Sequence record: OR204650.1
Direction: 5' to 3' (one strand)
Source: Escherichia phage pO91
Length of the DNA: 39,650 bases
Positions within the stretch are counted from its first letter, which is position 1. Every line of letters begins with the position of its first letter. Position numbers and translations under genes: made by a program. Below the pieces are notes generated by a model. The model searched no databases and was not told the DNA's origin. It saw only the letters and a program-made list of their open reading frames with translations. This document shows positions 1 through 38,802 of the stretch, piece by piece.

Positions 1-50
1 TCTATGAGTCTCTATCTGTATAGTGTTACAGTATAACATTACGTCCTACA

Positions 51-159
51 CCTACAGTCTAACTACCTACAGTCTAACTACCTACAGTCATTGACTCCTG
101 CTGTACCTACAGTCCTACAACCATAAGACGCTCACAGCCTACAGTCATAGACCTACAGT
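51..159. repeat. Left-end array of short direct repeats (CCTACAGT, 6 copies)
   Basis: CCTACAGT at 51, 66, 81, 106, 138 and 152 with irregular spacing; the position matches the short-repeat arrays next to the T7 terminal repeat. Confidence 0.6.
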
Positions 160-270
160 TCATAGACACAAAACTATAGACTTAAGGTCTAATACATGTT
201 AGTCAAAGACTATATCCTCTTACACCATGAGGCCGACGATAGCTCAATCAATATTATTTAAGATTACCTA

Positions 271-8507: not shown

Positions 8508-8957
8508 ATGACGCTGAAAGAGAAACTGGAGGCTTACTCTAAGGTTTCTCCTTCGGGATGCTGGGAGTGGCAACGCTCCCGGACTAAAACTGGTTATGGT
8601 CAAATAGCTATAGGTCATCAGAAACAGGACTATTCTCACCGAGTTTCGTACAGGGAGTACAAAGGTCCTATACCTGATGGATTGGTTGTTAGACATAAAT
8701 GTGATAACCCTTGCTGCTGTAACCCTGAGCACCTTGAAGTTGGGACTCAGAAGGACAACATGCAGGACTGCGTGAAGCGGGGACGTCACTCGAAACCGCC
8801 AGTATTCAAAGGAGAAGCTAATCACAAGACTAAGCTGACCGAGGAAGACGTAGCGTTTATCCTGAAGTCCAAGCTGAGGCCTATAGAACTTGCTAAGATG
8901 TTTGGTGTTACTCCGCAAGCTATTAATTGGAGACGCAAGAATGGCAAGAACGATTAG
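8508..8957 (+). CDS. HNH homing-endonuclease-like protein (paralog A1)
   Basis: GPIPDGLVVRHKCDNPCCCNPEHLEVGTQKDN, a Cys/His-rich HNH core; free-standing between the SSB and endonuclease I genes. Confidence 0.85.
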   Translation: MTLKEKLEAYSKVSPSGCWEWQRSRTKTGYGQIAIGHQKQDYSHRVSYREYKGPIPDGLVVRHKCDNPCCCNPEHLEVGTQKDNMQDCVKRGRHSKPPVFKGEANHKTKLTEEDVAFILKSKLRPIELAKMFGVTPQAINWRRKNGKND

Positions 8958-9390
8958 CCGAGGGCATCAAGTAGGAATATATAGGTCTGGGCTAGAAGCA
9001 AAGAACCAAGAGTGGCTGGAGAAGAACGGAGTTAAGGCTGAGTACGAGATGTATAGCATCAAGTACACAATACCAGAATCTCTTCACAGTTATTGTCCAG
9101 ACTTTGTACTGCCCAACGGAATCATTGTGGAGACCAAAGGAATCTTCGCAGTGGAAGACCGAAAGAAGCACCTATTGATTAGAGAACAGCACCCAGAGTT
9201 AGACATCAGGTTCGTGTTCTCGAGTTCCCGCTCCAAGTTATACAAAGGGTCTCCGACCACGTATGGCTCATGGTGCGAAAAGAACGGCTATAAGTATGCC
9301 GATAAGTTCATCCCGGTTGAGTGGCTGCGAGAGGCGACTGTACGTCTGCCTTCAGGTATACTCATTCCAAAGAAGAAAGGAGTTAAGTGA
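8941..9390 (+). CDS. Endonuclease I, Holliday-junction resolvase (T7 gene 3 homolog)
   Basis: 149 aa as in T7; YRSGLE, PDFVLPNGIIVETKG, DRKKHLLIREQHPELDIRFVFSSSRSKLYKGSPT match recalled T7 gp3; start at M18 of the track ORF. Confidence 0.93.
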   Translation: MARTISRGHQVGIYRSGLEAKNQEWLEKNGVKAEYEMYSIKYTIPESLHSYCPDFVLPNGIIVETKGIFAVEDRKKHLLIREQHPELDIRFVFSSSRSKLYKGSPTTYGSWCEKNGYKYADKFIPVEWLREATVRLPSGILIPKKKGVK

Positions 9391-14620: not shown

Positions 14621-14947
14621 ATGGGAGGTGTAGCAACCTTACGCTTCCATAAGATGCCTACTGGATGTATCGTCTGTGTATCTCACAAGAGGAACCAAGA
14701 TGGATACTTTCGGTACACGGTAGGCTCTGCCCGTAAGCCGGGACGCAAGGCGTTTATGTTCCACCGATGGGTGTGGGAACAGAAGCGCGGACCTATACCA
14801 GATGGCTACGAGATAGACCATTTGTGCTTGAACCGTGGGTGCTGCAACATAGAGCACCTACAGTGTATTCCAAAGCGCGAACACGTCATTAAGACGAACC
14901 GTGAGCGCAAACTTATTAAGAAGGAGAAGACTAATGGCTATTACTAA
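14621..14947 (+). CDS. HNH homing-endonuclease-like protein (gene 5.3 position)
   Basis: RGPIPDGYEIDHLCLNRGCCNIEHLQ HNH core; immediately after the DNA polymerase gene. Confidence 0.8.
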   Translation: MGGVATLRFHKMPTGCIVCVSHKRNQDGYFRYTVGSARKPGRKAFMFHRWVWEQKRGPIPDGYEIDHLCLNRGCCNIEHLQCIPKREHVIKTNRERKLIKKEKTNGYY

Positions 14948-15218: not shown

Positions 15219-15424
15219 GTGAATACTTACGGGTCCTAGCGGCCCTTAAGTCCTGCCCGAAGACATTTCAGTCCAACTATGTGCGCAACAACGCTGCACT
15301 TGTGGCTGAGGCTGCGAGTCGTGGACATCTAAGCTGCCTGTCTATGGATGGGCGTAACAACGGTGCGTGGGAGATTACCGCTGCTGGCACCAAGTTCCTG
15401 AATCAACACGGAGGCTGCCTGTAA
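15215..15424 (+). CDS. Gene 5.7 homolog
   Basis: MSEYLRVLAALKSCPKTFQSNYVRNNAALVAEAASRGH..C...GRNNGAWEITA.GT almost identical in pattern to recalled T7 gp5.7; 69 aa. Confidence 0.9.
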   Translation: MSEYLRVLAALKSCPKTFQSNYVRNNAALVAEAASRGHLSCLSMDGRNNGAWEITAAGTKFLNQHGGCL

Positions 15425-15807
15425 TGACCGAGTGTACCCGTTGGACTGGCTACTTCCTATCTAATGGGTATGGTCAGATAAAGAAAGCTGGAGTAAAGTG
15501 GCTGGCACATCGTCTGGTTTATACCGAGAACTTCGGTCCAATACCTGATGGTCTGGTGGTCAGGCATAAATGTGACAACCGCTGGTGCGTTAACCCTGAG
15601 CACTTAGAGCTTGGGACTCAGCGTGATAATATAAACGACTGCGTTGCCCGTGGTCGCCATAACAATGCAAAGCTGTCAGACCAGCAGGTTCGTGAAATCC
15701 GCAAGGATAAGCGCAGCTCTCGTGCTGTAGCGGCTGACTATGGGATTGACCATAAAGGCGTACTGGCGGTGCGGAACCGTAAATCTTATCAACATGTGGA
15801 GGACTGA
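15424..15807 (+). CDS. HNH homing-endonuclease-like protein (paralog A2)
   Basis: GPIPDGLVVRHKCDNRWCVNPEHLELGTQRDN; shares an identical 15-aa block with the 8508 protein; ATG overlaps the 5.7 stop. Confidence 0.85.
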   Translation: MTECTRWTGYFLSNGYGQIKKAGVKWLAHRLVYTENFGPIPDGLVVRHKCDNRWCVNPEHLELGTQRDNINDCVARGRHNNAKLSDQQVREIRKDKRSSRAVAADYGIDHKGVLAVRNRKSYQHVED

Positions 15808-22783: not shown

Positions 22784-25141
22784 ATGCCACTAATTACTCA
22801 ATCAATCAAGAACCTTAAAGGCGGCATTAGCCAGCAGCCTGATATACTGAGGTTCTCAGACCAAGGCGAGGCACAGGTTAACTGCTGGTCATCCGAGAGT
22901 GATGGCCTCCAGAAGCGCCCACCTACAGTCTTCAAGCGACGTCTTAACATCGACGTTGGGAGCAACCCTAAGTTTCACCTGATTAACCGTGACGAGCATG
23001 AGCAGTATTACATCGTGTTCAATGGGTCCAACATTCAGGTAGTTGACTTGAGTGGTGATCAATACTCAGTGTCAGGTGCGGTAGACTACGTTAAGTCCTC
23101 CAACCCACGAGATGACATCCGTGTCGTTACCGTGGCAGACTATACGTTCGTCGTTAACCGTAAGGTTGTCGTCAAAGGTGGAAACGAGAAGTCACACTCT
23201 GGTTATAACCGCAAAGCACGAGCTTTAATTAACCTGCGTGGTGGACAGTATGGTCGAACCCTTAAGGTGGGAATCAACGGTGGCGTTAAGGTCTCGCATA
23301 AGCTACCAGCAGGTAATGATGCCGAGAATGACCCGCCTAAGGTGGACGCTCAAGCCATTGGTGCAGCTCTGAGAGACCTTCTTGTTCAGGCCTATCCTGA
23401 CTTCACGTTCGACCTTGGGTCTGGATTCCTGCTAATCACAGCTCCTTCAGGGACTGACATTAACTCAGTGGAGACGGAGGATGGCTACGCTAACCAGCTA
23501 ATAAGCCCAGTCCTAGACACTGTGCAGACAATCTCTAAACTACCTCTTGCAGCTCCTAATGGGTATATCATTAAGATTCAAGGTGAGACAAACAGTAGCG
23601 CCGATGAATACTACGTGATGTATGACTCCAACACTAAGACGTGGAAGGAGACAGTGGAGCCGGGAGTTGTCACTGGTTTCGATGTCACCACAATGCCACA
23701 TGCTCTGGTCAGACAGCCTGATGGCTCCTTTGAGTTTAAGACTCTGGATTGGTCCAAGCGTGGTGCTGGTAACGATGACACAAACCCTATGCCTAGCTTC
23801 GTGGATGCTACGATTAACGATGTGTTCTTCTACAGGAACAGGCTAGGGTTCTTGTCAGGTGAGAACGTAATAATGAGCCGTTCAGCCAGCTACTTTGCGT
23901 TCTTCCCTAAGAGTGTGGCGACACTGAGTGATGATGACCCTATTGATGTAGCTGTAAGTAACCCTCGAATCTCAATCCTTAAGTATGCCGTTCCGTTTAG
24001 CGAGCAGCTACTACTTTGGTCGGATGAGGTTCAGTTCGTGATGACAAGCTCTGGGGTACTTACCTCGAAGTCTATCCAGCTTGATGTAGGCTCAGAGTTT
24101 GCCCTAGGTGACAATGCCAGACCGTTCGCTGTAGGACGCTCAGTCTTCTTCTCAGCTCCTCGTGGGTCATTCACCAGCATTAAGCGATACTTCGCTGTAG
24201 CTGATGTGTCTGATGTGAAGGATGCCGATGATACAACTGGTCACGTACTGTCCTACATCCCTAACGGGGTGTTTGATATTCAAGGTACAGGGACTGAGAA
24301 CTACATCTGCGTCAACTCTACAGGTGCATACAACCGTATCTACATCTACAAGTTCTTGTTTAAGGACGGCGTACAGCTTCAAGCCTCTTGGTCACACTGG
24401 GAGTTCCCTAAAGATGATAAGATTCTGGCGTCTGCTTCTATTGGCTCTACCATGTTCATCGTTCGTCAGCACCAAGGAGGGGTAGACATTGAGCACCTTA
24501 AGTTCATCAAGGAGGCAACTGACTTCCCCTCAGAGCCATATAGACTACACCTTGACTCCAAGGTGTCTATGGTAATTCCAATTGGCTCATATAATGCTGA
24601 CACATATAAGACTACGGTTGACATTGGTGCTGCTTATGGTGGCAACGCTCCGTCTCCCGGTCGGTACTATCTGATTGACAGTCAGGGTGCCTACGTGGAC
24701 CTTGGGGATTTGACCAGTATCTCTACTGAGGTTATCCTCAACGGCGATTGGTCAGGACGCACAGTGTTCATCGGGCGGTCCTATCTGATGTCCTACAAGT
24801 TCTCACGATTCCTGATTAAGATTGAAGATGATAGTGGCACTCAGTCTGAAGACACTGGTCGTCTACAGCTTCGTCGGGCTTGGGTCAACTACAAAGACAC
24901 TGGCGCTCTGAGACTCATTGTCAGAAACGGTGAGCGGGAGTTCGTGAATACCTTCAACGGGTACACCCTTGGTCAGCAAACCATCGGGACTACCAACATT
25001 GGGGATGGTCAGTATCGCTTCGCTATGAACGGTAACGCATTAACCACGAGTCTAACCTTAGAGTCCGACTATCCTACCCCAGTGTCAATCGTTGGGTGTG
25101 GCTGGGAGGCGTCATACGCTAAGAAAGCTCGTTCCGTCTAA
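22784..25141 (+). CDS. Tail tubular protein B (T7 gene 12 homolog)
   Basis: SQSIKNLKGGISQQPDILR, HLINRDEHEQYY, VTVADYTF.VNR, DVFF.RNRLGFLSGEN, DDDPIDVAVS, KYAVPFSE, GRLQLRRAWVNY, IGCGWE collinear with recalled T7 gp12. Confidence 0.97.
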   Translation: MPLITQSIKNLKGGISQQPDILRFSDQGEAQVNCWSSESDGLQKRPPTVFKRRLNIDVGSNPKFHLINRDEHEQYYIVFNGSNIQVVDLSGDQYSVSGAVDYVKSSNPRDDIRVVTVADYTFVVNRKVVVKGGNEKSHSGYNRKARALINLRGGQYGRTLKVGINGGVKVSHKLPAGNDAENDPPKVDAQAIGAALRDLLVQAYPDFTFDLGSGFLLITAPSGTDINSVETEDGYANQLISPVLDTVQTISKLPLAAPNGYIIKIQGETNSSADEYYVMYDSNTKTWKETVEPGVVTGFDVTTMPHALVRQPDGSFEFKTLDWSKRGAGNDDTNPMPSFVDATINDVFFYRNRLGFLSGENVIMSRSASYFAFFPKSVATLSDDDPIDVAVSNPRISILKYAVPFSEQLLLWSDEVQFVMTSSGVLTSKSIQLDVGSEFALGDNARPFAVGRSVFFSAPRGSFTSIKRYFAVADVSDVKDADDTTGHVLSYIPNGVFDIQGTGTENYICVNSTGAYNRIYIYKFLFKDGVQLQASWSHWEFPKDDKILASASIGSTMFIVRQHQGGVDIEHLKFIKEATDFPSEPYRLHLDSKVSMVIPIGSYNADTYKTTVDIGAAYGGNAPSPGRYYLIDSQGAYVDLGDLTSISTEVILNGDWSGRTVFIGRSYLMSYKFSRFLIKIEDDSGTQSEDTGRLQLRRAWVNYKDTGALRLIVRNGEREFVNTFNGYTLGQQTIGTTNIGDGQYRFAMNGNALTTSLTLESDYPTPVSIVGCGWEASYAKKARSV

Positions 25142-25165
25142 CTTATTGAAGGGCCTATAGATTTA

Positions 25166-25188
25166 CCTTAACTATCACTATAGGGACT
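25166..25188 (+). promoter_or_regulatory. Phage RNAP promoter (phi13-like) inside a perfect 10-bp inverted repeat
   Basis: CCTTAACTATCACTATAGGGACT; flanked by GGGCCTATAG (25151-25160) and CTATAGGCCC (25187-25196). Confidence 0.7.
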
Positions 25189-25217
25189 ATAGGCCCTTAA
25201 GGTTATAAGGAGACTTT

Positions 25218-25682
25218 ATGTATATTCGCAAGGCTACGGAACCAGATGTCCACTACTTTCTGTGGCATCTTTCAGCAGATGATGTTAATGAATGCAAAGC
25301 AAACTACGGGTCAACCGTGGGTCTCTCTGAGAGACTGCTTAAGCACCTATCTCCATCATCTGTGGTCTTAACTAACGGTGTAGGCGAAGTGTTTGCCTAT
25401 GGTGGAAACCAAGGGGATAACGTATGGTTCTTGACTTCGGGTCTTGTCCACAAGCTGAGACCTAAAGAGAAGCGAGAGTTCATAAAGCGTATCTCTGAGT
25501 ACAGGGACTTAATGTTAGACCAATACGGGACCATCTGGAACTACGTGTGGTCAGGCAATAAGTCTCACATTAAATTCTTGAAGTTGCTTGGTGCTAGGTT
25601 TCACGAGGAGTGGACTGTAAGCCCAGTAACTGGTGAGCGTTTTCAACTATTCACTATCTCTAAGGAGGATGGATGTGACTAA
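25218..25682 (+). CDS. Internal virion protein at the gene 13 position
   Basis: ORF track; AAGGAGA RBS; assignment by synteny only. Confidence 0.6.
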   Translation: MYIRKATEPDVHYFLWHLSADDVNECKANYGSTVGLSERLLKHLSPSSVVLTNGVGEVFAYGGNQGDNVWFLTSGLVHKLRPKEKREFIKRISEYRDLMLDQYGTIWNYVWSGNKSHIKFLKLLGARFHEEWTVSPVTGERFQLFTISKEDGCD

Positions 25683-26061
25683 GGTTTGTACCGTCTGTAA
25701 AATTGAAAAGCCGCTCGAGGCATTCTCTCCTCGGAAAGACTCTAAGTGTGGTGTGCGCTCGGCCTGTAAGCTGTGTCATAATGGCAGGAGTCACAAGAAC
25801 AAGGGATACGAGAAGTATCACATTACGCAGATAGAATATGATTCCATCCTAAAAGAGCAGGGTGGTGTCTGCGCAATCTGCAAGACATCAGGAACTAGCC
25901 GAGGATTATGCATTGACCATTGTCACATCTCCTGGAAAGTCCGAGGCATCCTTTGTCATACCTGCAACCTAAAGCTGACCCGTAGAAACTATCCTTCTAC
26001 ATGCGAAGATTTCGATGGTAAGGCTGCTGAGTACCTGGCTATAAGCCAGAAGGGGGATTAG
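25675..26061 (+). CDS. Endonuclease VII-family (HNH-type) nuclease
   Basis: GGVCAICK...RGLCIDHCH...RGILCHTCN matches the T4 endonuclease VII zinc/His-Cys pattern; start uncertain (GTG 25675 after AAGGAGG; the track ORF starts at 25633). Confidence 0.7.
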   Translation: MTKVCTVCKIEKPLEAFSPRKDSKCGVRSACKLCHNGRSHKNKGYEKYHITQIEYDSILKEQGGVCAICKTSGTSRGLCIDHCHISWKVRGILCHTCNLKLTRRNYPSTCEDFDGKAAEYLAISQKGD

Positions 26062-26088
26062 GAAATTTGCGAACCAATTTCAATCGGC

Positions 26089-26652
26089 ATGGGTCTCATG
26101 GCTGTAGCCGGGGCCACTATGTCCGCATCCCAACAGGCCAAGGCCGAAGGTGCAGCAATTGACGCTCAGAACCGACAGGCTCAGGAAATGGTTAAGCAGA
26201 TGAACTACTCTGACGCCAACCTGAAGATGCAGGAGCGAGACCTGAAGGAGCAGCAGATGGCTGAACTGACAGAGACCACGCTCAACGGTATACGCAATCA
26301 GGGTATGGTCAGAGCTGCGGTAGCTGAGTCCGGTCTGGAAGGTAACTCTATGGACAGGATTGAACGTCAGGTCGAGGGAGACACAGTCAAGGAGAGAGCA
26401 GGGATTACCGAAAGTTACAACCGCGACTATGCGGCTATCTTCGGGAACCGTATCGCCAACATTGAGAACACAAAGTCTGCTATCCGTGGTCAAGGTAAAA
26501 TCATCAAGACCAGCCCACTGGCTCATGCACTTAATGTTGCTACCGCCGGGATGCAAGGCTACGCCGCTGGTAAGTCAATCTCTGGAGCGTCCAGCTCTGG
26601 GGGTGCTGCACCTATTAGTGCTGCTAAAGGCACACCTACAGGTCATAGCTAA
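26089..26652 (+). CDS. Internal virion protein (T7 gene 14 homolog)
   Basis: LEGNSMDRI and RDYAAIF match recalled T7 gp14; position between gp13 and gp15; exact start uncertain. Confidence 0.8.
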   Translation: MGLMAVAGATMSASQQAKAEGAAIDAQNRQAQEMVKQMNYSDANLKMQERDLKEQQMAELTETTLNGIRNQGMVRAAVAESGLEGNSMDRIERQVEGDTVKERAGITESYNRDYAAIFGNRIANIENTKSAIRGQGKIIKTSPLAHALNVATAGMQGYAAGKSISGASSSGGAAPISAAKGTPTGHS

Positions 26653-26663
26653 GAGGAGGACTA

Positions 26664-28946
26664 ATGGCTAGTAATATTGAATCAGCTCTGGCTAATCGGA
26701 CTATGGGTCGTGGCAGAGCGCCGGGTAAAACTATCGCCGTCAACTATCAAGCAGCAAACGTTCAGGCTCCCACTGGGGACTCCGGGCTGGCTCGTGCATT
26801 AACTAACTTCGTTGAGTCTGGGACAGGATTGTACAAGCAGTTCAAGGACGATGAGAAGACAAGAGCCGACGAGCGGTCTAACGAGATTATCCGTAAGCTG
26901 ACACCTCAGCAAAGACGTGAGGCTATCCAGAACGGCACATTGCTGTATCAGGATGACCCTTACGCTATGGAAGCACTTCGAGTCAAGACTGGTCGTAACG
27001 CTGCCTTTGCGGTGGATGACGAGATTAACGTTAAGATTCAGAACGGTGAGTTCCGTACACGTCAGGACATGGAAGAGTATCGCCACCAGCGACTTCAAGA
27101 CGCAGCTAAGTCCTATGCTGAAGAGGCGGGTATTAACCCTACCGACGAGTTCTTCCAGCGTGGATTCAACGATAACATCACGGACCGAAACATCGCTATC
27201 TACGGGTCATTCAATAAGTATTTCAGCAAGCAGTCTGAAGAGACAGCAATGTTGAACACTCGTATTGAGATGAACTCGTTCCTTAACGATGGGGACCTGA
27301 TGCGTTCGCCTGAGTCTGGAAAGACCTTCATGGCCTACCTTCGGGATGGACTGACGACTGCTGCTATACCTTCGGACCAGAGAGCACGAGAGGTCATCAC
27401 CCAGACGGTCCGTGACGCAATCCAGAAGTCAGGAGGCTCAAACTTCCTACAGCAAGTCCGTGGCGAGCGTATCACCCTTAATGGTGTTGACGCTACCATC
27501 GAAGAGATTGTAGGACCTGACGTCTTCAATGCTGCTATGGTTGAGGCCCAAGGTACTGAGTATAAACTGGTGGCTAAGTATCAGGAAGACTTGGCGTTAG
27601 GCGTTCAGTCTGCGATTCTTCAGGATGACCCAACCATCGGTCTGGCCCAGATTCAAAAACTCAAGGAGCAGAACAACCAGCTTCAACCCGGCGAAGAACT
27701 CACTCCTCAGCGACAGATGCTTATTAACGCCGAAGCCACACTACTGGAAGCGGTAAAGCGTAAGTCTGCTGAACAGGCGAAGGAGAACACGAAGTTAATC
27801 CAGACACAGAACAAGCAACTGGTCATTGACCAAGTTTATCAGCGACGTCTTGCTGGGGACAACGTGTCCACCAACTATGAGGACCTTCCGGTCTCTGAAG
27901 CCACAGGAGAGTTCAAGCGTTCAGACATGAACAACTATGCGTCTGCCAAGCTACAGCAGATTGACCAGATGGACATCCCTGAGGCTGCTAAGGACGCTCA
28001 GAAGGTGGCATTGTTAAGAGCTGACACTAACAACGGTCCGTTCCGTAATGCCTTCCAGACGCTTACTCAGGACGCTGCTGGTGAGTGGCAAGCTGCGGTC
28101 ATCCGTGGACAGTACGACCCAAACAAGATGCAACGCTTCGAGTCTCTTCGTCGTTCCTACACTCAGGACCCTTCAAGTTTCGCTGCTCTGTATCCTGACC
28201 AAGCTCAGTTGTTCTCTACGTTCGACCAGATGGACAAGATGGGTCTGGACCCTCAGACGATGATTGAAGCTGATAAGCAAGCTGCAAGTCAAAGCCGTGA
28301 GATGCGCATGGAGTCAGACAAGGCGTGGCAGGAGTTGAAGAACGACTCCAAGAACACCCAGTTGTCTCGCCTCCCAACGTCTCTGGACTCAAGTGCTCGT
28401 AAGGTCTGGGACTCATGGTACTATCGTACAGGTAACGCTGACGCTGCAACGCAGCAGACTCAACGCTGGCTGAATGAGAACACCGTAACGTTCCAGTCTG
28501 AAGGTTCTGACGGTAAGTCCATCGGCATGGTGTCCAAGCACCAGCTTATGGTCGGGGATAACCCAGAGTCGTGGCAGGTTGGTCGAGACATTATCGACAC
28601 CGCTCGTAAGCAGCTCATTAAGGCCAACCCTTGGGTAGTGAACTCTCAGTTGTCCGTTGTTGAACAGAACGGCTCTATCTTCCTCCAAGACGCTACAGGG
28701 ACTATTCGTATTCGCTACGATAAAGAACTTGTAGGTAAACTCTACCGCGAACAACAGCAGAAGGCACAAGATGCCGCATACGCTCAGGCAGAACGTGACG
28801 CTAACAAGCGAGCGCGTATCGTCGAGACTAAAGCTGCTGGTGACAAACGTCGAGCTGACCGAGAGGCCAACATCGAGAAGCGCGGTGGGATGTACAATGA
28901 CGTCTCACTGGAGGGTATCGCAAACACCTTAATTGGTAAGGAGTAA
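26664..28946 (+). CDS. Internal virion protein (T7 gene 15 homolog)
   Basis: 760 aa versus about 747 in T7; AGGAGGA RBS; called on size, synteny and general similarity. Confidence 0.85.
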   Translation: MASNIESALANRTMGRGRAPGKTIAVNYQAANVQAPTGDSGLARALTNFVESGTGLYKQFKDDEKTRADERSNEIIRKLTPQQRREAIQNGTLLYQDDPYAMEALRVKTGRNAAFAVDDEINVKIQNGEFRTRQDMEEYRHQRLQDAAKSYAEEAGINPTDEFFQRGFNDNITDRNIAIYGSFNKYFSKQSEETAMLNTRIEMNSFLNDGDLMRSPESGKTFMAYLRDGLTTAAIPSDQRAREVITQTVRDAIQKSGGSNFLQQVRGERITLNGVDATIEEIVGPDVFNAAMVEAQGTEYKLVAKYQEDLALGVQSAILQDDPTIGLAQIQKLKEQNNQLQPGEELTPQRQMLINAEATLLEAVKRKSAEQAKENTKLIQTQNKQLVIDQVYQRRLAGDNVSTNYEDLPVSEATGEFKRSDMNNYASAKLQQIDQMDIPEAAKDAQKVALLRADTNNGPFRNAFQTLTQDAAGEWQAAVIRGQYDPNKMQRFESLRRSYTQDPSSFAALYPDQAQLFSTFDQMDKMGLDPQTMIEADKQAASQSREMRMESDKAWQELKNDSKNTQLSRLPTSLDSSARKVWDSWYYRTGNADAATQQTQRWLNENTVTFQSEGSDGKSIGMVSKHQLMVGDNPESWQVGRDIIDTARKQLIKANPWVVNSQLSVVEQNGSIFLQDATGTIRIRYDKELVGKLYREQQQKAQDAAYAQAERDANKRARIVETKAAGDKRRADREANIEKRGGMYNDVSLEGIANTLIGKE

Positions 28947-35697: not shown

Positions 35698-36135
35698 ATG
35701 CTCGAATTTTTAAAGAGAGCGGCTCCGTGGTTACTTGCAGCAGTGATGTTTGCTGGTGGCTACCACACCGCTAACAATAAGTGGGAGGCTAAGGTCAATG
35801 CAGAATACACCTCGAATCTTAAGGCATCGGAAGATACAAGGCTTGCTGTCCAAGCTGAAGTCAACAAAGTGTCCAGACGGTTTCAGGACGAAATGTCCTC
35901 GCTGGAAGGCAGCACTGATAGGATTATTGCTGACCTTCAGTCTGACAATAAGCGGTTGCGCGTCAAAGTCAACACCTCAGGTCTCACCGAGTCCGATATC
36001 AGTCGATGCTTCCCTAATGGTAGAGTCGAATTACACGAGTCAACTTCTAGAAGTCTTATCGAAATAACCCAGAAGGCAGACTTAAAGGAGAAGGCTTTAC
36101 AGGATACCATAAGGAGGTTGCAGGGTGCTAAGTGA
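35698..36135 (+). CDS. Rz-like i-spanin (T7 gene 18.5 homolog)
   Basis: MLEFLKRAAPWLLA, LEGSTDRIIADLQSDNKRLRVKV, LQDTIRRLQ match recalled T7 gp18.5. Confidence 0.92.
   Translation: MLEFLKRAAPWLLAAVMFAGGYHTANNKWEAKVNAEYTSNLKASEDTRLAVQAEVNKVSRRFQDEMSSLEGSTDRIIADLQSDNKRLRVKVNTSGLTESDISRCFPNGRVELHESTSRSLIEITQKADLKEKALQDTIRRLQGAK
35798..36067 (+). CDS. Rz1-like o-spanin lipoprotein embedded in the +1 frame of Rz (T7 gene 18.7 homolog)
   Basis: PRWKAALIGLLLTFSLTISGCAS lipobox and SVDASLMVE match recalled T7 Rz1; GGAGG 9 nt before ATG 35798; wholly inside the Rz gene. Confidence 0.85.
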   Translation: MQNTPRILRHRKIQGLLSKLKSTKCPDGFRTKCPRWKAALIGLLLTFSLTISGCASKSTPQVSPSPISVDASLMVESNYTSQLLEVLSK

Positions 36136-36511
36136 TTTAGTATATGAAGACGGGAAGCTGCTTAAAGGTGGGAAGGAGGTGGGTCACATCTCTAACCACG
36201 GCTACAGGCGCTTCAAGATAAACGGAAAGAACTATTTGGTCCACCGCTTGATTTACAAGATGCACAATCCTGAGTTCGACATTCTATCTGAACTGGTTGT
36301 GGACCACATCAACCGCAACCGTCTGGACAACATGATTGAGAACCTAAGGGCTGTGACCACGGCGGAGAATAACAGGAACCACGCTCCACCACTAGGTGTA
36401 TCATTCTGTAAACAGACTGGTAAATGGAAGGCGATTCATCCCCGGTGGCTTGGACGTTTTGATACAAAAGAGGAGGCCCTTAATGCAGTCAACGCCGCAA
36501 GACAGGAATAA
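36125..36511 (+). CDS. HNH_3-type homing endonuclease with AP2-like DNA-binding domain (paralog B1)
   Basis: [30 protein letters not shown] core followed by [28 protein letters not shown]; between Rz and large terminase; start uncertain (GTG 36125 or GTG 36178 after GGAAGGAGG). Confidence 0.8.
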
Positions 36512-38259: not shown

Positions 38260-38802
38260 ATGGCGAAGGTGAAGGACATCGACAGGGTGTCCCTCTTCGA
38301 CCACTATGCGTATGTTGATGGACAACTGGTGTGCAGGAAGCCTTTCGGCAGCTCGAAGAAGACCCCGGGCGAACCTATGGGCTTCTCTGTACACCCTTCC
38401 GGATACGCCATAGTGAAGGTGCTTGGAGGTAGGTATAGACGCTCTCGAATCATATACAGTCTAGCTGTAGGTCGAATACCTAAGGGTATGATGGTCGACC
38501 ACATCAATGGTGATAGGCTGGACGATAGACCTGAGAACTACAGGCTTGTTACTGCGCTTGAGAACCGCTGGAACTCAGAGGGTGGAGAGACTAATGGTCT
38601 CCCTAAGGGTATCAGCTTCTTCAAGCCAACAGGTAAATATCGTGCTCAGCTTCGGGTTCATGGTAAGTGTTTCACTAAGACTTCGGATTCCATAGAGGAA
38701 CTAGAGGCATGGCTGGCTGCTCTACGAACAGAGAAGCACAAGGAATACGCAGTAAACCGACGGTCCCCTACGCGAGATAGGACATACAGAAACCGTAAGT
38801 AG
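38260..38802 (+). CDS. HNH_3-type homing endonuclease with AP2-like domain (paralog B2)
   Basis: MVDHINGDRLDDRPENYRLVTALEN plus GISFFKPTGKYRAQLRVHGK; directly after the large terminase gene; AAGGAGG RBS. Confidence 0.85.
   Translation: MAKVKDIDRVSLFDHYAYVDGQLVCRKPFGSSKKTPGEPMGFSVHPSGYAIVKVLGGRYRRSRIIYSLAVGRIPKGMMVDHINGDRLDDRPENYRLVTALENRWNSEGGETNGLPKGISFFKPTGKYRAQLRVHGKCFTKTSDSIEELEAWLAALRTEKHKEYAVNRRSPTRDRTYRNRK

Follow-up and report, generated by a model that had tools for sequence, protein, structure and literature searches.

A putative F-CphI-like homing endonuclease gene at the start of gene 14 in a K1F-like phage

In T4-like phages, the free-standing homing genes of the Seg and Mob families (GIY-YIG and HNH nucleases) occupy intergenic positions between conserved essential genes. 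Their distribution is patchy, and they spread when breaks are repaired during mixed infections. Another group of nucleases is defined by the endonuclease VII motif, comprising CX2-4C, DHDH, R and CX2C-N and corresponding to D40, H41, H43, R54 and N62 of T4 endonuclease VII (Fang et al., 2018, PMC6083498). This family has two clades. In the resolvase clade, the motif is N-terminal and the proteins align with T4 gp49 over their whole length. In the endonuclease clade, the motif is located towards the C-terminus; this clade holds F-CphI, intron-encoded proteins of T7-like phages and Hpy99I, and each of its podoviruses also has T7 endonuclease I (Fang et al., 2018, PMC6083498). F-CphI (S-PM2p180, cyanophage S-PM2) is a characterised homing endonuclease and the founding member of the 'DHHRN' family (Fang et al., 2018, PMC6083498). 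The family, its role in homing and its presence in T7-like phages possessing endonuclease I are already published.

Within the genus Kayfunavirus, near-identical genes located at the exact site considered below are already deposited and named. The copies of Penshu1, PSK1, ZCEC02, HC13, U8, CY1 and ST21, with 86-94% protein identity and the same position between genes 13 and 14, differ from the one studied here as alleles only. Some copies are annotated, for example as 'recombination endonuclease VII' (CPT_Penshu1_042) or 'endonuclease VII' (PSK1_00003). A more distant gene of the same family is found at the same junction and in the same genus as EcoDS1 gp13.5 and as ORF40, 'endonuclease VII', of Hafnia phage Ca (yong1).

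The window analysed here, i.e. the whole 39,650-nt stretch of DNA of Escherichia phage pO91 (OR204650.1), is the complete or nearly complete genome of a K1F-like phage of the T7 group, genus Kayfunavirus. The nearest GenBank genomes show about 93-94% identity over 90-94% of its first 25 kb. The original prediction, made from the sequence of the window, had placed an endonuclease VII-family ORF containing the segments GGVCAICK, LCIDHCH and RGILCHTCN between genes 13 and 14, in a phage that also has a T7-type endonuclease I. This description was borne out: the three segments are present in the translation, the ORF is flanked by PF11090 and PF24072 genes and is missing from the same position in most relatives, its contact with the end of gene 13 is an overlap of 8 nt including the gene 13 stop codon (TAA 25680-25682), and the profile matches for the ORF and for endonuclease I are highly significant (Table 1). 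Among the functions that the prediction had offered, another homing-type element is the one favoured here; five further ORFs of the window contain HNH_3 domains. With a probability of about 0.78, the ORF can be regarded as a free-standing homing endonuclease gene of the DHHRN, F-CphI/Hpy99I-like branch of endonuclease VII-motif proteins, inserted between the ATG and the second codon of gene 14. This reading is proposed because of the homology to F-CphI, the precise insertion site, the existence of empty sites and of decayed copies, and a history of the insert that is decoupled from that of its flanks.

Table 1. Features of the gene 13-gene 14 region and of the resolvase gene, with positions in the window
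Feature	Position	Strand	Remarks
Endonuclease I, T7-type resolvase gene	ORF 8890-9390		PF05367, E 1e-73
Gene 13 (gp13)	25218-25682	+	PF11090, E 4.7e-43
Ribosome-binding site TAAGGAGG	25661-25668	+	Gene 14's in insert-free relatives; nuclease gene's here
Nuclease ORF	25675-26061	+	128 aa, GTG start, TAG stop 26059-26061; Pfam PF02945, E 1.1e-14
N-terminal CxxC...CxxC region (C5, C8, C31, C34)	25687-25779	+	Presumed second zinc site / DNA-binding module
Beta-beta-alpha-metal catalytic core	25870-25968	+	C66-x2-C69, D81 H82 (C83) H84, R90, C94-x2-C97 N98
Replacement ribosome-binding site AAGGGGGA	26050-26057	+	Inside the last codons of the nuclease gene
ATT replacing the ancestral ATG of gene 14	26065-26067	+	In frame with, and 3 nt after, the nuclease TAG
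Gene 14 (internal virion protein B)	26065-26652	+	PF24072, E 9.5e-43; start revised from ATG 26089 to ATT 26065

Family, motif and fold of the nuclease

The Pfam profile Endonuclease_7 (PF02945) matches residues 48-105 of the 130-aa version of the protein with 54.5 bits, the curated gathering cutoff being 23.6. It is the sole match reported: the HNH and HNH_3 models of Pfam gave none at E 0.1 for this protein. Family membership is further supported by PHROG 2633, 'endonuclease VII' (E 8e-26). The DHHRN motif, CX2-4C ... D-H-x-H ... R ... CX2C-N, is present. In an alignment of 29 sequences, C66, C69, D81, H82, H84, R90, C94, C97 and N98 are invariant columns, and the four cysteines of the N-terminal region are at least 90% conserved. 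All predicted catalytic residues and zinc ligands are intact in the window nuclease. In the segment ISWKVRG, it has a Trp where most homologues have a Gly. The family is very large: a word-indexed protein search returned 18 relatives, and an exhaustive search 66,708 cluster representatives at E <= 0.001.

Pairwise comparisons bring the window nuclease close to F-CphI. BLASTP gives 38% identity over 119 aa (E 2e-17, window residues 1-105), and when F-CphI is compared by hhalign with a profile of the relatives of the window protein, 125 columns are aligned out of its 142 residues with a probability of 99.9. The two proteins are co-linear, with an N-terminal CxxC...CxxC module, a C-terminal endonuclease VII motif and a terminal helix. 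Both are small and free-standing (128 aa in the window, 142 aa for F-CphI), and both phages possess a different resolvase, which in the window is endonuclease I, as in the podoviruses of the endonuclease clade. Unlike the F-CphI gene, the window gene belongs to a T7-like podovirus, where it is inserted into a virion gene at the start codon.

Among solved structures, Hpy99I (PDB 3fc3) is the best match by sequence (E 0.0047, residues 5-109) and by fold, as judged from a Foldseek search with the AlphaFold model (E 3.1e-4, probability 0.99). Hpy99I has two zinc sites and a beta-beta-alpha-metal core, which are also predicted for the window nuclease. Hpy99I differs, however, in being a type II cellular restriction enzyme with a paired methylase and an extra N-terminal domain; the window has no methylase. 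The N-terminal cysteine region aligns with the matching parts of Hpy99I and F-CphI, and the first 30 residues of the AF2 model have pLDDT values of 90-95 (mean of 85.4 for the whole protein). From these comparisons, the N-terminal Cys4 module can be inferred to bind zinc.

With T4 endonuclease VII (gp49; PDB 1e7d, 1en7), the window nuclease has in common the catalytic motif (D40, H41, H43, R54, N62 and the Cys4 zinc site) and the Pfam family. The phmmer match is restricted to residues 61-123, with an E of 0.27, and the Foldseek match has an E of about 0.11 and a TM of 0.33; hence neither phmmer nor Foldseek shows whole-length similarity to gp49. The T4 enzyme has its motif at the N-terminus, ahead of a dimerisation region, whereas the window nuclease has a Cys4 module there. 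The alignment with F-CphI, the ranking of Hpy99I above T4 endonuclease VII and the C-terminal position of the motif argue, by architecture and by pairwise and profile scores, that the nuclease belongs to the sequence-cutting rather than to the junction-resolving branch.

The insertion site and its history

Comparison with insert-free relatives shows that the insert precisely separates the ATG of gene 14 from its second codon. Empty sites read ...TCTAAGGAGGACGT ATG TGY GAR CCN..., where the ATG is the start of gene 14 (GTG in the most distant locus, L036), and the corresponding start string can be written AAGGAGGACGT-ATG-TGY. At the left junction of carriers, the same ribosome-binding site is found with the same spacing, and the nuclease start takes the position of the old gene 14 ATG. 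This junction is clearest in Esher7 (GGAGGACGT ATG ACG AAG) and in Penshu1. The right junction reads ...AAG GGG GAT TAG GAA ATT TGC GAA CCA..., and the TAG of the nuclease is in frame with gene 14 in all carriers of the window type. The insert measures 390 nt (130 codons), and 392 nt in the window, where 2 extra nt are present just before the nuclease start. Because of the insertion with these 2 extra nt, the C-terminus of gp13, which aligns as ...SKEDVCASQ* in empty-site genomes, has become ...SKEDGCD* in the window. A -1 frameshift at the heptamer AAATTTG of the right junction was also considered and was rejected, the heptamer being outside the frame of any ORF translated there.

The insert is not foreign-looking in composition. 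Its GC content is 0.473, against 0.498 for the genome, and its GC and GC3 are inside the range of the neighbouring genes. A promoter and terminator scan of positions 25000-26800 returned a single promoter-like site and a single terminator-like site, numbers also reached by shuffled sequence, and therefore gave no support to a transcription unit of its own for the nuclease gene.

The distribution of the gene is patchy. A 2.2-kb query around it matches 260 phage records, and many of the top matches (95-96% identity) cover 82% of the query in two pieces, with no gene between genes 13 and 14. The site is empty in 22 of the 24 K1F-like loci of an IMG/VR sample. The distance between conserved anchors is 52 nt in empty sites, against 442-446 nt in carriers. 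Close full-length copies (86-94% protein identity) occur in only 10 GenBank records, always at the gene 13/14 site. Absent from most close relatives, the nuclease gene is not a conserved core gene. Decayed copies are also found. Three genomes contain internally deleted remnants: about 100 nt are left at each end in KM02, about 30 nt of the 5' end and about 60 nt of the 3' end in Esher7, and the 3' half in ZG49. In the copy of Salmonella phage ST21, the zinc ligand Cys94 is changed to Arg. Together, insert-free genomes, intact copies, the point-inactivated copy of ST21 and the deletion remnants would provide a natural series illustrating the life cycle of a homing gene.

Judged by segment-wise identities, the history of the insert differs from that of its flanks. 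The inserts of PSK1 and ZCEC02 are 93% identical to that of the window, while their gene 13 is another allele, only 68% identical. Conversely, the inserts of Penshu1 and ST21 are 78% identical, with flanks at 93-96%. Both gene 13 alleles are found with empty sites too, e.g. in L019. Moreover, at least three diverged lineages occupy the same site, i.e. the window type, the Ro45lw type and the yong1/EcoDS1 gp13.5 type. The Ro45lw type is about 43% identical to the window nuclease and has its last ~40 nt in common with the window type. The yong1/EcoDS1 type is only about 40% identical and is out of frame with gene 14. Distant paralogues are located in other classic homing positions, for instance, in Przondovirus, immediately before the DNA polymerase gene. 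As a whole, these features correspond to the usual pattern of free-standing homing endonuclease genes.

A change in codons 4-5 of gene 14 (GTA AGT to ATT TCA) was considered as a signature of target immunity. It was dropped because two loci break the linkage: L021 has an empty site and yet the carrier-type CCAATTTCA, and CY1 has the insert and yet the empty-type CCAGTATCT. The only strictly insert-linked features are the ATT and the new ribosome-binding site.

Translation starts of the nuclease gene and of gene 14

The original prediction had called the start of the nuclease ambiguous. On the sequence of the window alone this stands, with three in-frame candidates (GTG 25633, ATG 25669 and GTG 25675); comparison with homologues settles the matter in favour of the third. 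Aligned homologues have a start codon exactly at the 25675 position, GTG in U8 and ATG in Penshu1. In addition, AGGAGG ends at 25668, leaving a 6-nt spacer to GTG 25675 and none to ATG 25669. Alignment and spacing together resolve the predicted start as GTG 25675, with a product of 128 aa. The ribosome-binding site used there, TAAGGAGG, has an anti-SD duplex energy of -12.0 kcal/mol.

In carriers, the nuclease gene has taken over this site from gene 14. Existing annotations begin gene 14 at a downstream ATG, 8-12 codons late. In the window, ATG 26089 (codon 9) and ATG 26098 (codon 12) have no ribosome-binding site, with duplex energies of -1.7 and -4.1 kcal/mol, respectively, and codon 9 is not conserved across junctions, where it is ATG, TTA, CTA or CTC. 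On the other hand, the last codons of the nuclease gene contain AAGGGGGA, which ends 7 nt before ATT 26065 and has an anti-SD duplex energy of -10.8 kcal/mol, comparable to those of the sites of genes 12, 13 and 15. The residues that would be encoded downstream of this ATT in carriers, CEPISIG, are conserved with insert-free gp14 (MCEPVSIG...).

The ATT itself is present in all 14 carrier or remnant junctions collected (window, U8, Penshu1, PSK1, ZCEC02, CY1, ST21, KM02, Esher7, ZG49, Ro45lw and the metagenomic L040, L054 and L057) and in no empty site. The last two come from a search of metagenome contigs with a degenerate junction pattern, in which 14 stretches were retrieved, 2 of them real (L054 and L057) and 12 chance matches. 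This constancy is seen across nuclease lineages that are only 38-93% identical. Codons 2-11 of gene 14 (CEPISIGMGL) have a pN/pS of 0.18 over 10 unique carrier junctions, with synonymous variation that includes a TCA/AGC serine switch, a pattern to which recombination with insert-free genomes could add. The replacement site is also retained where the nuclease is no longer whole: AAGGGGGA is kept in all three deletion remnants and in L040. In L040, where an earlier TAA terminates the nuclease ORF, the 26 nt GAGGGGGATTAGGAAATTTGCGAACC are nevertheless unchanged, so that nuclease coding does not account for their conservation.

Taken at the sequence level, these data indicate that carrier gp14 probably starts at the AUU, using a ribosome-binding site that comes from the insert. 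Termination-reinitiation at the neighbouring UAG may assist this initiation. It can be proposed that the remnants keep their 3' end because it supplies AAGGGGGA and the AUU for gp14. More tentatively, and with slightly less than even confidence, the homing gene may have made part of itself indispensable, by capturing the ribosome-binding site of gene 14 and leaving this gene dependent on the 3' end of the insert and on AUU, so that decay spares the 3' end. If so, a homing gene could entrench its remains by way of the site at which translation of a neighbouring essential gene begins. An ATG would recreate the target of the enzyme itself, which might be the reason why the AUU persists. In the yong1/EcoDS1 type, gene 14 is given a GTG start behind GGAGGTGA, instead of the ATT of the window type. 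The takeover of the gene 14 translation start with a conserved AUU looks like the sole new detail of this locus, a modest addition to what has been described.

Homing and its alternatives

Characterised members of the family, together with what is generally known of free-standing homing genes and of T7 recombination, allow a homing cycle to be proposed. The nuclease gene would be transcribed late, along with genes 13-16; shared late transcripts are proposed because promoter and terminator signals separate from them do not exceed chance. It would be translated from the ribosome-binding site that formerly belonged to gene 14, in a manner coupled to the stop codon of gene 13. During mixed infection, the enzyme would cut both DNA strands of insert-free relatives, at their uninterrupted gene 13/14 junction or close to it, and T7-type recombination repair would copy the insert into the cut genome. 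The carrier genome would be immune, since the insert is proposed to split the target site. Finally, the 3' end of the insert would provide gp14 with AAGGGGGA and an AUU start. Unlike the Seg and Mob genes, the window gene is built into the translation initiation region of the adjacent gene, and it belongs to another nuclease family.

The original prediction had also seen in the ORF a second junction-type nuclease. In this case, an auxiliary structure-specific resolvase of junctions and branches, similar to T4 gp49, would debranch DNA before packaging beside endonuclease I. Membership in PF02945, the database name 'recombination endonuclease VII' and the catalytic residues common to T4 endonuclease VII agree with such a role, and late expression beside morphogenesis genes would fit a packaging function. 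However, the match to the T4 enzyme is weak and partial, and the motif is C-terminal and preceded by an extra Cys4 module, an arrangement found in F-CphI and Hpy99I but not in the resolvase clade. Moreover, most close relatives lack the gene, others have decayed copies, and a dedicated resolvase is present in the phage. A homologue of F-CphI having Hpy99I as its closest structure and being lost or decaying in related phages is thus very unlikely to be a resolvase. Patchiness in itself might have another origin, since presence or absence and mosaic flanks could also come from ordinary recombination and from deletion of a dispensable gene, and are alone no proof of endonuclease-driven mobility. 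The gene might accordingly be a dispensable accessory nuclease without homing, involved in host DNA degradation or in interference between phages, as was speculated for the nucleases of Hafnia phage Ca in the paper describing them. Precise insertion into an essential gene, at a single conserved site that at least three diverged lineages occupy, and full-length homology to F-CphI, a proven homing enzyme, make this reading unlikely.

The position of the gene among those of internal virion proteins might, in addition, suggest a packaged nuclease, ejected with the virion proteins and acting on host or competitor DNA at infection, possibly as a fusion to gp14 produced by read-through of the TAG. 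The nuclease ORF and gene 14 are indeed in the same frame, with a single TAG between them, in all carriers of the window type. Nevertheless, there is neither a read-through signal nor evidence for a suppressor, the ORF of L040 ends at an earlier TAA, and the paralogue of the yong1 type is out of frame with gene 14. The strong ribosome-binding site 7 nt before the ATT points to separate initiation, and the sporadic distribution counts against a structural role. For the packaged nuclease of the original prediction, position in the structural cluster was the one basis, and this position is accounted for by insertion at the start codon of gene 14; such a reading is therefore highly improbable, more so than the two preceding ones. 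What had been described as an unusual place, the structural cluster, is an unsurprising location for a homing gene.

The homing reading has consequences for annotation. The gene would be better labelled as a putative F-CphI/DHHRN-type homing endonuclease than as a 'recombination endonuclease VII' or a resolvase. In carriers, gene 14 should be started at the ATT, since the late starts remove part of a conserved hydrophobic N-terminus. For the engineering or therapeutic use of K1F-like phages, the gene 13/14 site is a proven permissive insertion point, and the nuclease could bias recombination within phage cocktails.

Start codon of gene 14 and alleles at the gene 13/14 junction

The ATG that opens gene 14 in insert-free phages is replaced by ATT in all insert-carrying phages (window 26065-26091; junctions L003-L013 and, for the metagenomic loci, L040, L054, and L057). 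In public annotations of the carriers, gene 14 is made to start at an ATG located 8-12 codons further downstream, and this ATG is devoid of a ribosome-binding site. The empty site of Escherichia phage ST31 (L021, junction about 2465-2520) has the ATG start, yet it displays the CCAATTTCAATC variant otherwise found in insert carriers. The ST31 junction could represent either the allele that the insert originally entered or the product of a precise loss. The junction is also the boundary of a divergent gene 13 block. Gene 13 occurs as two alleles sharing only ~68% nucleotide identity (L009, L010, L006, L019), within structural modules that are otherwise 93-97% identical.

Variant endonucleases were observed at this site. 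In Salmonella phage ST21 (L012, 1173-1559), the invariant zinc ligand Cys94 is changed to Arg (GILRHTCN) in an otherwise intact copy, which is probably an inactivated allele. As judged by protein identity, the same substitution also appears in ST3 and ST1. Escherichia phage Ro45lw (L008/L030, 1204-1660) has, at the same site, an Endo VII-family gene whose protein is only ~38-43% identical. Despite this divergence, the last ~40 nt of the gene and the SD-TAG-AAA-ATT junction are near-identical to those of the lineage found in pO91. Either the Ro45lw gene is a mosaic or a separate constraint acts on its 3' end. Finally, many representative-library matches to the product of window 25675-26058 are 240-500 aa long, with 2-6 matched stretches each. 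They either carry Endo VII-motif modules in tandem or may be the result of merged gene calls.

Other putative homing-type nuclease genes in the genome

Besides the Endo VII-motif gene, five ORFs of the window match Pfam HNH_3, with E-values from 5e-15 to 1e-19 (see table). Two of the five have an additional match to zf-His_Me_endon, and a weak match to AP2 was obtained for one. In total, the genome contains six putative free-standing homing nuclease genes, which together account for ~6% of its length.

HNH_3 ORFs of the pO91 genome
Feature	Window position	Strand	Evidence	Remark
HNH_3 ORF	8508-8957	+	Pfam	
HNH_3 ORF	14621-14947	+	Pfam	
HNH_3 ORF	15367-15807	+	Pfam	
HNH_3 ORF	36125-36511	+	Pfam	GTG start
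HNH_3 ORF	38260-38802	+	Pfam	

The ORF with the GTG start overlaps the 3' end of an Rz-like lysis gene (35698-36135) and is directly followed by the large terminase gene. The same position and arrangement have been reported for a 397-bp homing gene in stocks of Hafnia phage Ca (PMC8861465); according to that report, the gene is polymorphic within these stocks, with a correlation to plaque size.

Repeats at the left genome end

At the left end of the genome (window 40-170), CCTACAGTC(TAACTA) is repeated several times at short intervals. These copies resemble the short repeats located near the terminal repeat in T7-group genomes.
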